Sequence record: PZ445521.1
Reading direction: 5' to 3' (one strand)
DNA: 64,000 bases
DNA from: a phage
Each line of letters begins with the position of its first letter. Positions within the stretch are counted from its first letter, which is position 1. A program made the position numbers and the translations under genes. Positions 21,929-27,668 of this stretch are shown piece by piece. The notes beneath the pieces are model-generated. The model was not told the DNA's origin. It saw nothing but the letters and a program-made list of their open reading frames with translations, and made no database searches.

Positions 21929-22893
21929 TGTATTCTTTAGAGGAATTTAATAATCAAGCAATAAACGCAGATTTCCAACGTAATAATATGTTTAGCTGCG
22001 TTTTTGCAACAACTCCATCAACTAAAAGCTCTTCGTTGATAAGTTCAATTAGCAACTTTTCTTATAATAACTTGGGCCTAAATTCAGATTGGTTAGGATT
22101 AACTCAAGGCGATATTAATCAGGGAATTACCACGCTAATTACAGCTGGCACACAAAAACTGATAAGAAAATCAGGGGTTAGTAAATATCTTATTGGTGCC
22201 ATGAGTCAACGTACAGTTCAAAGTTTATTAGGCTCATTTACAGTTGGTACATATTTAATTGACTTCTTTAACATGGCATATAACTCATCTGGATTGATGA
22301 TATATTCTGTAAAAATGCCAGAGAATAGATTATCCTATGAAACTGACTGGAACTATAATTCTCCTAATATTCGTATAACTGGAAGAGAATTAGACCCTTT
22401 GGTTATTTCATTTAGAATGGATTCAGAAGCTTGTAACTATCGTGCAATGCAAGACTGGGTTAACTCCGTTCAAGACCCAGTAACTGGACTGCGTGCTTTG
22501 CCACAAGATGTCGAGGCAGATATTCAGGTTAATCTTCATTCTCGTAATGGATTGCCTCATACTGCGGTGATGTTCACCGGATGCATTCCAATATCAGTGA
22601 GCGCTCCTGAGTTATCATATGATGGAGATAACCAAATAACTACATTTGATGTTACTTTTGCGTACAGAGTGATGCAGGCTGGAGCGGTTGATAGGCAAGC
22701 TGCGCTTGAATGGCTTGAATCTGCTGCTATAAATGGTATTCAAAGCGTTCTCGGAAATAGTGGAGGTGTTACTGGACTATCTAATTCGCTTTCACGACTT
22801 AGTAGATTAGGAGGGACTGCTGGAAGCATTTCAAACATTAATACTATGACAGGAATTGTTAATTCGCAGAGTAAAATATTAGGAGCAATATAA
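21928..22893 (+). CDS. 54: baseplate tail tube initiator gp54
   Basis: 321 aa; gp19-like C-terminal region; synteny. Confidence 0.9.
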   Translation: MYSLEEFNNQAINADFQRNNMFSCVFATTPSTKSSSLISSISNFSYNNLGLNSDWLGLTQGDINQGITTLITAGTQKLIRKSGVSKYLIGAMSQRTVQSLLGSFTVGTYLIDFFNMAYNSSGLMIYSVKMPENRLSYETDWNYNSPNIRITGRELDPLVISFRMDSEACNYRAMQDWVNSVQDPVTGLRALPQDVEADIQVNLHSRNGLPHTAVMFTGCIPISVSAPELSYDGDNQITTFDVTFAYRVMQAGAVDRQAALEWLESAAINGIQSVLGNSGGVTGLSNSLSRLSRLGGTAGSISNINTMTGIVNSQSKILGAI

Positions 22894-22897
22894 CAAT

Positions 22898-22915
22898 GGG
22901 GACCTTTCGGTCCCC
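22898..22915. terminator. bidirectional terminator between gene 54 (+) and the minus-strand early block
   Basis: hairpin ggggacctttcggtcccc with T tracts. Confidence 0.7.
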
Positions 22916-22921
22916 ATATTT

Positions 22922-23212
22922 TTATTTACGGAATGAAATGAAAGCAGAAACTGAAGCAACTAAACTGTCTTCAATATAAACTTCAATTTTTACCGGAGCT
23001 TCTGACTCGAATTTACCTGTTACTACACCTTGGAAAATACTTTCAGTTTGTTCTGGCTTTGAAAAATTTTCAGAAGGAAAAATTCCGAACTTTTTATCTG
23101 TTCCAAAAATTTTGATAAATTCATCATAAACTGCTTCATTAAAAGCATTATCAGCAGGAATAACGCCTTCAACTACAAGTTCTTGACCCAAAAAGCGCAA
23201 AGAAGATTTCAT
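22922..23212 (-). CDS. hypothetical protein downstream of the alt genes
   Basis: 96 aa ORF; preceded by the early promoter element at 23221-23274. Confidence 0.65.
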   Translation of the reverse strand: MKSSLRFLGQELVVEGVIPADNAFNEAVYDEFIKIFGTDKKFGIFPSENFSKPEQTESIFQGVVTGKFESEAPVKIEVYIEDSLVASVSAFISFRK

Positions 23213-23220
23213 TTTGTGTT

Positions 23221-23274
23221 CCTCATGTTATGTCAGTAAGACTACTATAACACAACACGAGGGACTTGTAAACT
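23221..23274 (-). promoter_or_regulatory. T4-type early promoter plus leader, copy 1 of a 54-nt repeat
   Basis: minus strand GTTTAC, 18-nt spacer, TATAGT, then GAGG RBS; 53/54 identical to 38623-38676. Confidence 0.7.
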
Positions 23275-25330
23275 ACATCTTGAACTTTTTAGACATTCCG
23301 TTGATGTTAACCAAAGAAGCCAAGATTTGAGAAACTTCGTTTTCCTCTTCTTTTGATTCTTCTACAAGGAATTGATTAAATCCAGCCATTGGACGAACTT
23401 CACCAGTTTCCATTAAATGGTCGCCATCATATACTGATTCTTCTAATTGTTCAGAAGGAGGAACGATTGTACCTTCGATTAGATACTTGTTATAAGCAGT
23501 TTCTTTCATAAAGTACGTACTTACTTTATTAATCTTCAGTAAAATTCCACGCGGTAGAATAACTTCAGCTTCTGATGGAAATCCTGATAAATGACCTGGA
23601 ACGATAACTTTGATTCGCTCAGCTCCTTTAATTACCATACCCACGCTAGTTTCAGCATCTTCATTGGCATATGTAGAATGACTACCCATATGCATTAAAT
23701 CTTCTGCATCAACGGAACCTTCTCCTTCGCCAGAAAATACTGCGCCGGAATCATCTAGAGCCATATAGTTTTTACCATGCTCACCGAAGATATTTGGTTT
23801 AAGTGATGTCGATACGAAGTTCTTGAAATAGAACATTTTGTTTTCAATGTTATGACGCAAAGTTTTAAAGGTAACTTCTTGTCCACGGTAAAGTGTAGTT
23901 CCTGGAGGAAGAACTGATCCTTTGGCAAAGGCAGAATCTAACGTCTCGATGTGCTTAATAGCTCTTTCCATGTATTCTTCACGGGTAGAATCTGGTTTAC
24001 CCAAAAGGAACGAGTTCATTTCAACATATGAATCTGCACAATAATCTTCAATTACATCAGATTCAGCCTGAGTCAGTCCTTTTGGAGTTACTTCGGTGCT
24101 TGCGTATTCATATGCCTGAGCAGCAGATTCATTAATCAATTTATAAATGCCATTCATTACAAATTGAATAATAGCTGTCTTTTCATCTGATGCAGCTTTA
24201 GAACCTTTAACTAAATCATTGATAATTTTCTTAATAACATCAAAGCTATTAGAAATATTAATGTCAGCAAGATCGCTTAAAATTTTATCAGTTTTATAAT
24301 CAAAGAATTCTTTATTCTTTAAATATTCTTGAGAACCTTGATATGTTATATCGCTCTGCAGCTTGATAGATGGATCGCGTAAACGTGCATGGGCTAATGC
24401 AATATGATTTCGGAAACTTTCTAGTTCATAATCATTAGATTTAAAACGAGAAGCACTTCTCATACCACCGATAGCTCCTTTGCTGAAGTTTGAACCAATC
24501 TGGATAACGCCAGAGTTCATTGGTCCTTCTGCTTTGTATACCGGAACTTTAGATTCAAACTCTTGATATTTCTTGGCAGCGAAGCTATCGCCTTGAAGTG
24601 AAGCATCGACAGTAGAATATTGAGCTTGTGCTGCTAATCGACGACTAATTTTAGTTTTTTGAATAACCGCTTGATCAGTACGTTTATCATTTTCCAAAGC
24701 AATAGAAGCAGCAACTGCGACAGCTTTAGGAACAGCATTACCTGTTTTAACGTCTACATAAACATCACCGACCTTTGATTCAACTTTTGTGAATAGCTCT
24801 GTTGAAATAGGAGGTACACCTGGAATGTCTTCTAAATTGGCATTTTTACGGTAAACCATAATATATGCATACTTTTTATCATAGTCCCAGATTTCCTTTA
24901 AAAGAACATATCGACCTGCTCCTTTAGTACGCACTAAACGGTCAGCAATAACTTGCATTTGACGAGCAGCGCCATTTGTTTTACTCTTTAGTACGCGGAA
25001 TAGGCATGCGTCAATTTTATACTGCTTCATTGTTTGAAGAGCAGTATCAAAAACAGCGTTAATGACGCCAATTGGATTTCCACCCAAGTTTTTAAGCTTA
25101 ACCAGCGATAATTTCTCGTTGACACCTATCATTACGATATGCATCATTTTATCGCCTGGCTTAACGTTTTTATTTGTATCACCACCTGAGGTGTATGTAC
25201 AAAATCTAAATCCAGGAAGCACGCTTTCTTCACCGGCTTGAATAGCAAAAATTTGTGGTATTTTATGCTTAGGATTTAAGTTAACAACCGGCGCCGAAGC
25301 GCCGTCAAATAATTCTGTAATAAGTTCCAT
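23273..25330 (-). CDS. Alt-family ADP-ribosyltransferase paralog (copy A)
   Basis: 685 aa; N-terminal about 220 aa highly similar to copy B; ART-like YRGQ, FVSTSL and SEAEVILP motifs. Confidence 0.85.
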   Translation of the reverse strand: MELITELFDGASAPVVNLNPKHKIPQIFAIQAGEESVLPGFRFCTYTSGGDTNKNVKPGDKMMHIVMIGVNEKLSLVKLKNLGGNPIGVINAVFDTALQTMKQYKIDACLFRVLKSKTNGAARQMQVIADRLVRTKGAGRYVLLKEIWDYDKKYAYIMVYRKNANLEDIPGVPPISTELFTKVESKVGDVYVDVKTGNAVPKAVAVAASIALENDKRTDQAVIQKTKISRRLAAQAQYSTVDASLQGDSFAAKKYQEFESKVPVYKAEGPMNSGVIQIGSNFSKGAIGGMRSASRFKSNDYELESFRNHIALAHARLRDPSIKLQSDITYQGSQEYLKNKEFFDYKTDKILSDLADINISNSFDVIKKIINDLVKGSKAASDEKTAIIQFVMNGIYKLINESAAQAYEYASTEVTPKGLTQAESDVIEDYCADSYVEMNSFLLGKPDSTREEYMERAIKHIETLDSAFAKGSVLPPGTTLYRGQEVTFKTLRHNIENKMFYFKNFVSTSLKPNIFGEHGKNYMALDDSGAVFSGEGEGSVDAEDLMHMGSHSTYANEDAETSVGMVIKGAERIKVIVPGHLSGFPSEAEVILPRGILLKINKVSTYFMKETAYNKYLIEGTIVPPSEQLEESVYDGDHLMETGEVRPMAGFNQFLVEESKEEENEVSQILASLVNINGMSKKFKM

Positions 25331-25333
25331 GAT

Positions 25334-27430
25334 TTATCCTTGAACGAACTTGTAAGGCATGTTTGTAATATCTATGCAAGACGCAATAATTCCAAGAGAT
25401 GATTCTACTTTCTGTTTAACGTTTGATGAAACAAATGATGCAAAGTCAACTCTGTCTTCTATTTCAATATCACCTGTCATTGCAACCAATTCACCAGTTT
25501 CCATTAAATGGTCTCCATCATAGATTACCGATTCGGTGAGCTCTTCCGTGGTCATAACTTCAGCTTGAATGAGTTTTGTATTATTAGATGTTGTTCCGTC
25601 ATTATTAGAAGCATCAGTTATTTTATTAACTTTGACCATCAATCCACGCGGTAGAATAACTTCAGCTTCTGTTGCTATTCCGAGACTTCCTGGATATACA
25701 ACATTAACTTTATGAGCTCCATCAATTGCCCATCCTATTTGAACTTTAACGTATTCAGGATTTTCTTTATACGCTCTTATTTCGTTTGGATTAATAGTTA
25801 TTCCTTCTTCATTTTTATCAACTGTTAATTCATTGCGAGCTTCTGGTTCTAAAAGACCAATACCAGCATGTGTAATTCCAAAACGTCCAAAAATGATAGG
25901 AGTTAAAGAAGTAGATACAAAATTTCTGAAGTAGAACACTTTATTTTTAACTAACGCTTCATATATAGGAGCAGTCATACTTTGAGCACGATAAACTGTA
26001 ATGCCTTCTGGTATACGGTCACCATTTTCAAAAGCTGAATCTAAGTTATTTATAGCAGATTCAATTTCTTTTTCACTCATTACATCATATCGTTCTGGAT
26101 TGTAACGACCTAAAAGAAGATTATTGATGTCAGTATATCCTGAACCGCAATATTCTCTAATGCCACGCTTTTGTGATGGAGTATATTTAGAACCATCGCG
26201 GGCAATAGTAATATCAATCATTGGACCAGCACCAATTCCAGAAAAACTGTAAATCATTCGTTTGAGGAATTTAGTTTTTGCTGCGTTCCAGGAATTTTTA
26301 GTTATTTCTTCCCAGACTTCATCTGGTTGTCCTTTACGATTTTTATTATGATTAGCAAGCCATTTATCTTTATAATCTTCAAAGAATTGATTTACAGCTG
26401 CTGCGTATTTCTCTAAACATTTTATTGAAGTAGTTGGTTCATTTTTAATTGCATTAAAAATTACTTCTTTAATTTTTTCTGAAACTTCACCGACCCGACT
26501 CAGCGGAAAGAATTTATAATCATAGTGAAGTTCATCTGCCGTTCCTTCAGCAATAATTTTTGCTGCCTTTGTTTTAGAAGCTAATGAATTAATTCCAATT
26601 TTCATTTCTTCTGCTTCGGGAATTAAAGGTGCAGTAGCTGGTTTATTAAAATTAGCTGCTGTAGATTCATACTTCTGGAATAATTCACTTTCAAATCTAG
26701 AAGATTCCAATGACTGACTTTGTGCAATTGCTCTACGGGAAATTTTAACTTTAACGATTACGGCTTGGTCAGAACGTTTATCATTTTCTTGTGCAATTGA
26801 TGCTGCAATTGCTTCATTTTTAGTTACCTGATTTCCGGTATCTTTGTTGATATAAACATCACCAACCTTCGATTCAACCTTAGTAAAGAGTTCAGTACTA
26901 ATTTCTGGAACTCCTGGAATGTCTTCTAGTGATACGTTTTTACGATGTATAAGAATATATGCATACTTTTTATCGTAATCCCAGAGTTCCTTAAGAAGGA
27001 CGTATCTGCCACCTGAACGACTACGGATAAGTCTATCAGCAATAAGTTGAATTTGTCGAGCTTGACCGGCGGTTTTAGACTTAAGAATGCGTAGCATACA
27101 TGCATCAATTTTATACTGACGCATAGTTTGCATTGCAACGGTAAATACTGAATTGATGTAATTAATAGGACTCGGTCCAAGACCCTTTAATTTAGCAATT
27201 GACCCCTTTGCAGTTAATGTAAAAGGAACGATATGCATCATTTTATCGCCCATTTTTAAATCGCGATTAGTATCACCTCCAGATGTATAGGTACATAAAC
27301 GAAAGCCTGGTTGTTCAATTGCATCATCAACATGAACTGAAAAAATTTGTGGTATTTTCTTCTTTGGATTTAAGTTTGTAATCGGAAGAGTAGTATCTTC
27401 GTCAAATAATTCTGTAATGAGTTCCATCAT
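25334..27430 (-). CDS. alt: Alt ADP-ribosyltransferase (copy B, the one matching my memory of T4 Alt)
   Basis: 697-698 aa (two adjacent Met codons); YRAQ, FVSTSL and TEAEVILP motifs. Confidence 0.88.
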   Translation of the reverse strand: MMELITELFDEDTTLPITNLNPKKKIPQIFSVHVDDAIEQPGFRLCTYTSGGDTNRDLKMGDKMMHIVPFTLTAKGSIAKLKGLGPSPINYINSVFTVAMQTMRQYKIDACMLRILKSKTAGQARQIQLIADRLIRSRSGGRYVLLKELWDYDKKYAYILIHRKNVSLEDIPGVPEISTELFTKVESKVGDVYINKDTGNQVTKNEAIAASIAQENDKRSDQAVIVKVKISRRAIAQSQSLESSRFESELFQKYESTAANFNKPATAPLIPEAEEMKIGINSLASKTKAAKIIAEGTADELHYDYKFFPLSRVGEVSEKIKEVIFNAIKNEPTTSIKCLEKYAAAVNQFFEDYKDKWLANHNKNRKGQPDEVWEEITKNSWNAAKTKFLKRMIYSFSGIGAGPMIDITIARDGSKYTPSQKRGIREYCGSGYTDINNLLLGRYNPERYDVMSEKEIESAINNLDSAFENGDRIPEGITVYRAQSMTAPIYEALVKNKVFYFRNFVSTSLTPIIFGRFGITHAGIGLLEPEARNELTVDKNEEGITINPNEIRAYKENPEYVKVQIGWAIDGAHKVNVVYPGSLGIATEAEVILPRGLMVKVNKITDASNNDGTTSNNTKLIQAEVMTTEELTESVIYDGDHLMETGELVAMTGDIEIEDRVDFASFVSSNVKQKVESSLGIIASCIDITNMPYKFVQG

Positions 27431-27450
27431 ATCCTCTCTAGTGTTTATTC

Positions 27451-27458
27451 TATTTATA
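27451..27458 (-). promoter_or_regulatory. late promoter TATAAATA (minus strand) upstream of alt
   Basis: plus tatttata is minus TATAAATA about 21 nt before the alt ATG. Confidence 0.6.
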
Positions 27459-27464
27459 AAATTA

Positions 27465-27482
27465 AAGGCCCGAAGGCCTTTA
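27465..27482 (-). terminator. hairpin overlapping stop of the 62-aa ORF
   Basis: aaaggcccgaaggccttt read directly. Confidence 0.5.
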
Positions 27483-27668
27483 ATAATCTATTGGTAAGAG
27501 AGTACGATATATTTCAAACTTTGGACCTTTTTCATAGGCATCAAATGTTTCTGTGAATTTATTATAAGCATATGCATCTATAAATTCAATCATGATTTGT
27601 GATACAGAAGTAGAAACATCTCCACCTTCTTTTTGAGCCACGACAATTGTTTCTAAGTAAGCTTTCAT
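27480..27668 (-). CDS. hypothetical protein
   Basis: 62 aa ORF between ligase and alt; start overlaps ligase stop. Confidence 0.55.
   Translation of the reverse strand: MKAYLETIVVAQKEGGDVSTSVSQIMIEFIDAYAYNKFTETFDAYEKGPKFEIYRTLLPIDY

Follow-up and report, generated by a model that had tools for sequence, protein, structure and literature searches.

What does a phage of the T4 group gain when it carries two complete, adjacent genes for the enzyme Alt, and is the second of them a working enzyme at all? This question is raised by a locus on the minus strand of phage record PZ445521.1, of which we analyzed a stretch of 64,000 nucleotides (nt), referred to here as the window; all coordinates are those of the whole stretch. 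Alt is the textbook case of a phage enzyme that is injected together with the DNA to reprogram the host, and to our knowledge nearly everything known about it derives from T4. Following the naming used in RB14, we call the upstream gene alt (copy B, 697 amino acids [aa]) and the downstream gene alt.-2 (copy A, 685 aa). Our answer is that both genes of the locus are likely functional late genes, transcribed together, and that they encode paralogous mono-ADP-ribosyltransferases of the T4 Alt type, which would both be injected and would probably act on different targets. The integrity of the genes, their homology, their catalytic residues, the ADP-ribosyltransferase (ART) fold in structural models, the purifying selection, and the distribution of the pair among phages are the observations on which we build.

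It is best to begin with the gene calls. Between positions 22900 and 27700 there are five minus-strand open reading frames (ORFs), four of 96, 685, 698, and 62 aa and a 487-aa DNA ligase. The first-pass annotation had described two minus-strand ORFs of 685 and 698 aa lying 3 nt apart, and both ORFs and the gap (25331-25333, between the alt stop and the alt.-2 start) were found as described. The range it assigned to the pair, 22922-27482, was too wide, as it takes in alt.-3 (22922-23212) and the stop codon of alt.1 (27480-27482). Read from its first ATG, the copy B ORF spans 25334..27430 (-) and encodes 698 aa; GenBank starts the gene at the second ATG (27427), giving 697 aa, and this second ATG is better spaced from a GAGG ribosome-binding site than the first. 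A 5-kb query over the locus matches Shigella phage JK38 (MK962755.1, genus Tequatrovirus) at 100% identity and hundreds of other T4-like phages at 96-98%. The JK38 annotation calls the two long ORFs “RNA polymerase ADP-ribosylase” and “adenosylribosyl-transferase packaged, injected with DNA,” and RefSeq labels both copies “Alt-like RNA polymerase ADP-ribosyltransferase.”

Are both genes full-length members of the Alt family? As far as sequence and modelling tell, they are, in agreement with what had been proposed. Pfam PF03496 (ADPrib_exo_Tox), which has a curated cut-off of 23.4 bits, is matched by copy A with 71.4 bits (E = 8e-20) and by copy B with 129.9 bits (E = 9.7e-38), and PHROG 802 (“Alt-like RNA polymerase ADP-ribosyltransferase”) is matched from end to end by copy A (1-685, E = 1.3e-256) and copy B (1-696, E = 1.9e-273). 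The ART-like residues that had been read from the two translations could all be located: YRGQ481 in copy A and YRAQ479 in copy B, VSTS506 and VSTS504, and EAEVILPRG587 in both, together with the conserved C-terminal block YDGDHLMETGE at 634 and 636, respectively. This gives a catalytic set of R482, S507-T508-S509, and E587-A-E589 for copy A, and of R480, S505-T-S507, and E587-A-E589 for copy B. In a family alignment of 31 diverse members (41-96% identity to copy A), five catalytic positions do not vary: the arginine of YR[GAS]Q, the two serines of STS, and the two glutamates of ExE. Mutation of the ExE glutamate of T4 Alt (published as E577A) abolishes ADP-ribosylation (PMC11404850).

Structural evidence agrees with the profiles. 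AlphaFold models of both copies (predicted local distance difference test scores of 74.7 and 74.1) have one common layout: an N-terminal domain of alpha/beta type extends to about residue 200, the stretch from there to about 470 is all helical, the catalytic domain, rich in beta structure, reaches about 625, and the tail beyond it is modelled with low confidence. The concern that copy A might lack either the ART fold or the catalytic residues is not borne out, since its modelled catalytic domain has the fold and carries the R-S-ExE set. The closest structural matches are protein-arginine ARTs. When compared with PDB sequences, the family profile matches C3-like, iota-like, Certhrax, and Vis ARTs, with its ExE aligned to their Q/ExE; these matches are weak, as are those of copy B alone, which fall on C3-like and iota-like ARTs. 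There was no solved Alt structure in the PDB copy searched and no NCBIfam match for copy A or copy B, and a search of BFVD returned Alt homologs and other phage ARTs only. Judged by profile and model, both copies are R-S-E ARTs of the Alt/VIP2 clade and members of the T-even Alt family.

How far apart are the two proteins? A pairwise BLASTP alignment relates them along their whole length, with 41% identity over 718 columns (E = 5e-164), which is far beyond chance. Their N-terminal regions of approximately 235 aa had been described as almost identical; this was overstated, as the measured identity is 68% (160/236), and MQTMRQYKIDAC, given as part of the shared sequence, is exact only in the 697-aa copy, the 685-aa copy having LQTMKQYKIDAC. 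That the central regions differ was well seen, with only 18% identity across the helical region at residues 236-410. Further along, identity is 40% in the catalytic region 411-520, 13% in the insertion that separates the STS and ExE motifs (521-575), and 46% around ExE (576-645). The N-terminal domain is the most conserved part of the family, and homologs carry Pfam PF26846 (Tevenvirinae_ADPRT). Neither copy matched PF26846 in the Pfam scan made of these proteins; the match is precomputed for a cluster representative that is 99% identical, and for hybrid homologs. Because the N-terminal DNA is only 67.7% identical and the longest exact word shared by the two copies there is 29 nt, the duplication is, by this measure, old. 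The same two figures rule out that gene conversion has recently taken place between the copies in this genome.

Is the second gene being kept? Copy A is intact, at 685 aa, in JK38, RB14, T2, and T6, and the gene pair of T2 and T6 has the identical lengths of 2058 and 2094 nt. Among these four phages, the pairwise ratio of non-synonymous to synonymous substitution rates (dN/dS) of copy A is 0.035-0.046 overall and 0.014-0.035 in the ART region; for alt it is 0.04-0.08. Copy A is as constrained as alt and is under strong purifying selection. With a dN/dS of about 0.04 and intact ORFs in all four, decay toward a pseudogene is ruled out in these phages. At 90% identity, the copy A cluster holds 772 member sequences.

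It had been left undecided whether T4 itself has this second copy, intact or split, and here the comparison is informative. In T4, alt (682 aa) is followed by alt.-1 (61 aa), alt.-2 (67 aa), and then alt.-3. The products of alt.-1 (NP_049810.1) and alt.-2 (NP_049809.1) are 95% and 98% identical to copy A residues 1-56 and 62-116; to the Alt protein of T4 itself, their identity is just 56-62%. The DNA of T4 aligns to window positions 22877-23292 and 24983-25379 with nothing between them, so that 1.69 kb (23293-24982) is missing. Because the T4 ORFs match copy A and the T4 DNA skips this segment, T4 can be said to carry a remnant of copy A; on this alignment, alt.-1 and alt.-2 are its first approximately 116 codons, frameshifted, followed by a 1.69-kb internal deletion. 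In 91 records, the sequence runs uninterrupted across the deletion junction, and some of these are field isolates, for example Yersinia phage fPS-90 and Shigella phage ESh36. The deletion is therefore a natural allele, and its origin as a laboratory artefact is ruled out. At ≥90% identity and ≥80% coverage, 402 phage records contain the segment missing from T4, among them those of T2, T6, RB3, and RB14, and a few records hold hybrids instead (these counts are estimated from BLAST coverage). By these estimates, T4 represents the minority state at the locus, with alt.-2 kept by some four-fifths of the related genomes in the phage collection.

Would the two genes be expressed together? Upstream of alt there is a T4-type late promoter box, TATAAATA (Table 1), and it is the only such box positioned to drive the pair; alt.-2 has no promoter of its own. 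Going by the known T4 late-promoter consensus, we infer that the pair is expressed late. The ribosome-binding site of alt.-2 sits within the end of alt, which points to co-transcription of the two genes and possibly to coupled translation. A second exact TATAAATA box is found at 26047-26054 (-), inside the alt coding region and approximately 1.4 kb past the alt start; it may be due to chance, or it may be an internal late start that feeds alt.-2. The GC-rich hairpin AAAGGCCTTCGGGCCTTT, with its T-rich run, looks like a terminator parting the upstream early genes from the late alt unit, and a conserved terminator upstream of alt has been described in T4-like phages (Nolan et al. 2006, PMC1524935). 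At the opposite end, the hairpin between gene 54 and alt.-3 is likely where the alt, alt.-2, alt.-3 transcription unit ends.

Would the product of alt.-2 be packaged as well? T4 Alt is a prohead-core protein, present in approximately 40 copies and ejected with the DNA (PMC9026906). Mass spectrometry has located two cuts made in it by the prohead protease gp21, one after ITE-6 and one after LTE-619; with the latter, 63 C-terminal residues are lost and a 68.2-kDa protein is left (PMC5694885). Both copies have ITE at positions 4-6, and position 6 is an invariant glutamate family-wide. Toward the C-terminus, the corresponding motif is LEE629-631 in copy A and LTE630-632 in copy B, each followed by S, and throughout the family (L/I/M)-x-E followed by S or A stands directly before the invariant Y-D-G-D...E-x-G-E block. 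Because the cleavage motif directly precedes it, this block marks the start of the predicted C-terminal propeptide. A cleavage model built in this way reproduces the published 68.2 kDa of mature T4 Alt and predicts mature masses of 69.1 kDa for copy A and 70.2 kDa for copy B. The propeptides hold family-invariant residues to their very end (Y-D-G-D, E..G-E, two Phe, and a K-F pair 3-4 residues from the C-terminus), a pattern that suggests a constrained role, whether in targeting, in tethering, or in holding the enzyme inactive before maturation. The first-pass annotation had considered the shared N-terminus consistent with head packaging; the presence of both gp21 motifs in both copies, under a single late promoter, strengthens that view. 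Since copy A keeps the gp21 motifs, lies downstream of the late promoter, has its ribosome-binding site inside alt, and starts after a gap of only 3 nt, its co-expression, packaging, and processing are likely.

Would both enzymes modify the same proteins? In other ARTs, ExE rather than QxE goes with an arginine acceptor and, as both copies have ExE, arginine is the predicted acceptor for both. Across the 31 homologs, the invariant positions are grouped in the N-terminal domain, the catalytic core, and the C-terminal propeptide, with none at 238-426. The copies are most unlike in the helical region and in the 40 residues inserted behind STS. They differ, too, in the loop that leads up to ExE: F584 of copy A, three positions before the first catalytic Glu, is F or Y throughout the copy A clade and Ile, Pro, or Gln in the alt clade. 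C3-like and iota-like toxins have an aromatic residue at the matching position, and the ARTT-motif loop of these toxins contributes to substrate recognition. Because the helical region, the post-STS insertion, and the loop before ExE all diverge, the two copies probably modify different sets of host proteins. ADP-ribosylation of Arg265 of the RNA polymerase alpha subunit, and of other host proteins, is known for T4 Alt only; in the catalytic region copy B departs from T4 Alt, and copy A departs from it further still.

From these elements a course of events can be proposed. Each protein has four parts, namely a conserved alpha/beta domain at the N-terminus, behind a predicted 6-residue propeptide, a divergent all-helical region, an R-S-ExE catalytic domain, and a predicted C-terminal propeptide that is acidic. 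By homology with T4 Alt, both proteins would be made late and incorporated in the prohead core via their common N-terminal and C-terminal elements; gp21 would trim both after ITE-6 and after the L-x-E that lies just ahead of S-V-(I)-Y-D-G-D. Both trimmed proteins would be retained in the mature head and ejected along with the DNA, and in the new host cell both would move ADP-ribose from NAD+ onto arginine residues of host proteins. For copy A, we infer packaging, processing, ejection, arginine specificity, and distinct targets from the analysis described here.

Can the parts of these proteins be exchanged? Copy B and T4 Alt are 70.6% identical overall, being near-identical in the N-terminal 235-240 residues or so and in the C-terminal propeptide and divergent in the middle and the catalytic region. 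In this central and catalytic part (window 25450-26720), alt has at least two diverged alleles among Tequatroviruses: at least 80% of this query is covered by alt of the JK38/RB32/RB51 type in 351 records, and T4-type genomes match only approximately 20% of it. In phage ECML-134 (NC_025449.1, locus L008 3201-5261), the tandem pair is replaced by one hybrid gene, whose product is 100% alt-type from residue 1 to approximately 150 and 100% alt.-2-type from approximately 160 to its end. The complete genome of ECML-134 and two metagenomic contigs have no Alt-type gene other than such a hybrid between alt.1 and alt.-3. Other hybrids have an alt-type N-terminus to approximately residue 60, 120, 180, or 240, followed by the copy A body. 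A contig assembled at k=99 in ENA and the complete genome of the cultured ECML-134 make it unlikely that the hybrid proteins (P0003-P0006) are assembly chimeras. They are consistent with the expected product of unequal recombination within the N-terminal homology of the tandem copies. Because they join an alt N-terminus to an alt.-2 body, the hybrids suggest that the N-terminal module is interchangeable, and because the ECML-134 hybrid is its only Alt-type gene, a phage can evidently lose the alt body and still retain that of alt.-2.

With these hybrids in mind, we lean, if only somewhat, toward a more far-reaching view, in which Alt.-2 would be a second head-packaged, gp21-processed, and injected arginine ART with targets unlike those of Alt, and in which the locus would deliver effectors in modular fashion. 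Effector bodies that can be swapped would be carried by a C-terminal propeptide and by an N-terminal packaging domain that is itself interchangeable, a scheme that the ECML-134 hybrid fits. Alt.-2 would then have gone unstudied because the model phage, T4, deleted the gene.

What speaks against two functional, injected enzymes, and what else might copy A be? Several points weigh on the other side. In the literature that could be searched, no virion proteomics, activity assay, or mutant phenotype turned up for copy A. Its PF03496 score is below that of copy B (71 vs 130 bits), and copy A alone had no match to PDB sequences at E ≤ 0.01. Confidence in the models is moderate, and low in the 517-555 insertion and the C-terminal propeptides; the published E577 is E576 by count in the RefSeq T4 protein, a mismatch of one; and arginine specificity is based solely on the ExE rule from other ARTs. 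Finally, alt.-2 is, to judge by the 91 records with the deletion, natural isolates included, dispensable in at least some settings.

This last point might be taken to mean that copy A is a duplicate that is either redundant or in decay, turning into a pseudogene as it did in T4, and that it has no separate role. The 1.69-kb deletion and the frameshift are found in T4 and in 90 further records, all of phages that remain viable, and T4 Alt itself is non-essential (PMC9026906). Yet the dN/dS of copy A is as low as that of alt, its ORF is intact in four of four phages, its catalytic residues are invariant, and the segment is intact in 402 records; a mere 41% identity to alt also speaks against simple dosage redundancy, and ECML-134 retained the alt.-2 body and dropped that of alt. 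We regard this as the least probable of the explanations, and a very improbable one. It is easier to imagine that copy A is an active ART that is left unpackaged and acts late in the cytoplasm of the producing cell, in the manner of ModA and ModB. The literature yielded no proteomic evidence of copy A in virions, the gene lacks its own promoter, and its translation may be much below that of alt. ModA and ModB, however, are small early proteins without the elements that copy A shares with packaged T4 Alt, namely ITE-6, the N-terminal domain, the LxE site before S, and the invariant propeptide residues; copy A also shares its late promoter transcript with alt, and the sole Alt-type protein of ECML-134 joins an alt N-terminus to an alt.-2 body. 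We consider such a cytoplasmic role unlikely, if less so than the other alternatives.

Copy A could also be mainly a structural part of the prohead core, or a catalytically altered enzyme whose substrate is nucleic acid or which, like ModB, attaches RNA chains, in place of an arginine-specific protein ART. With ModB there is a precedent for a T4 ART that uses NAD-capped RNA, copy A has a 40-residue low-confidence insertion beside the NAD pocket and a differing residue pattern in the loop before ExE, and Alt has been termed an important core protein (PMC11404850). Against this stand the full and invariant R/STS/ExE set, the protein-arginine ARTs as best structural matches, and the strong purifying selection on the ART region itself (dN/dS 0.014-0.035), which leave such a role highly improbable. 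We continue to favor two functional, co-transcribed late genes whose products would be injected.

The features of the locus are collected in Table 1. The gene order, 29-48-54 / alt.-3, alt.-2, alt, alt.1, 30, is the same in T4, RB14, T2, and T6, with the baseplate and tail genes 29, 48, and 54 on the plus strand beside the minus-strand alt cluster. The product of alt.-3 differs from T4 Alt.-3 by a single residue; in T4 mutants that escape the CmdTAC defence, the C-terminus of Alt.-3 is extended and degradation of the CmdA antitoxin is blocked (PMC11618068). Just 5' of alt.-3 there is a sigma-70-like promoter match (TTTACA, 17 nt, TATAGT, with TG; 23272-23244). The stop of the DNA ligase gene and alt.1 overlap by 4 nt. 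In the T6 record, the alt.1 ortholog is called “siderophore-interacting protein,” which looks like an annotation transfer error.

Table 1. Features of the alt/alt.-2 locus in the window, and loci elsewhere that hold a single hybrid gene
Feature	Coordinates	Strand	Remarks
Bidirectional terminator-like hairpin	22896..22917	.	Between gene 54 (+) and alt.-3 (-)
alt.-3	22922..23212	-	96 aa; Pfam DUF5498; separate small gene, not an ART
alt.-2 (copy A)	23273..25330	-	685 aa, 2058 nt; full-length paralog of alt
alt.-2 predicted C-terminal propeptide	23276..23437	-	54 aa, acidic, isoelectric point 4.6, starts SVYDGDHLMETGE; from alignment to T4 LTE-619; low model confidence
alt.-2 catalytic ART region (aa 411-631)	23438..24100	-	R482, S507/S509, E587/E589; ends at predicted gp21 site LEE631, before S
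alt.-2 N-terminal alpha/beta domain (aa 1-235)	24626..25330	-	Contains ITE-6; 68% identical to alt counterpart
alt (copy B)	25334..27427	-	697 aa, 2094 nt; ortholog of head-packaged T4 Alt ADP-ribosyltransferase
alt predicted C-terminal propeptide	25337..25531	-	65 aa, after LTE632, before S
alt.-2 ribosome-binding site AAGGA	25337..25341	-	In last alt codons, 6 nt before alt.-2 ATG (sequence GTTCAAGGATAAATCATGG)
T4-type late promoter box TATAAATA	27451..27458	-	23 nt 5' of alt start codon
GC-rich hairpin AAAGGCCTTCGGGCCTTT and T-rich run	27464..27481	-	Directly after alt.1, just before late promoter box
alt.1	27480..27668	-	62 aa; Pfam PF24647 “Phage blade protein,” E = 7.5e-29
Metagenomic single-hybrid loci	L006 4001-6055; L007 4001-6061		Replace the tandem pair

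Why should this matter to those who work with T-even phages? Because most related genomes, including T2 and T6, keep a second Alt-type enzyme, four enzymes (Alt, Alt.-2, ModA, and ModB) and not three may take part in ADP-ribosylating the host during most T-even infections, and alt.-2 could affect comparisons of T4 with T2 or T6 on wild hosts. That T4 emerges as the exception, together with the natural hybrids, makes a clean experiment easy to design; a specialist would find little surprise in the result.

How does the pair compare with what is already known? It is not new at the sequence level, being annotated in hundreds of public genomes; RB14 alt.-2 and its T2 and T6 equivalents form the same gene pair with the same spacing and 94-97% nucleotide identity, and there is no difference of substance. 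Our literature searches for the second copy found no functional study of Alt.-2, and returned only Nolan 2006 on the duplication together with unrelated hits. Mention of the T4 remnant in print goes back to 2006 or earlier (PMC1524935), and the T4 genome record notes it as well, describing alt.-1/alt.-2 as a duplication of “the first part of gene alt,” whereas the present comparison shows them to be the residue of a full-length paralog. Paralogous duplications beside alt have been reported for 44RR (ORF187c/188c) and RB49 (ORF183c) (PMC1524935), but these belong to other genera and have other sequences than the alt/alt.-2 pair.

Measured against T4 Alt (NP_049811.1), copy B is the positional ortholog, with the same flanking genes and the same length class, although its central and catalytic regions are those of a different allele (hence the 70.6% overall). 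Copy A has the same four-part architecture and catalytic residues as T4 Alt, with both gp21 motifs and a place in the late operon; it differs in being only 41% identical and in having F584 where the alt clade has Ile, Pro, or Gln. The C3-like and binary-toxin ARTs (Vis, C3bot, iota/CPILE-a, VIP2, and Certhrax; PF03496) have the catalytic fold and the R-S-ExE residues in common with both copies, but they are toxins that bacteria secrete and whose targets are eukaryotic or bacterial. In Alt-type proteins, unlike those toxins, the catalytic part is accompanied by an N-terminal domain specific to phages, by a long helical region, and by propeptides that a protease removes, for delivery by the phage head.

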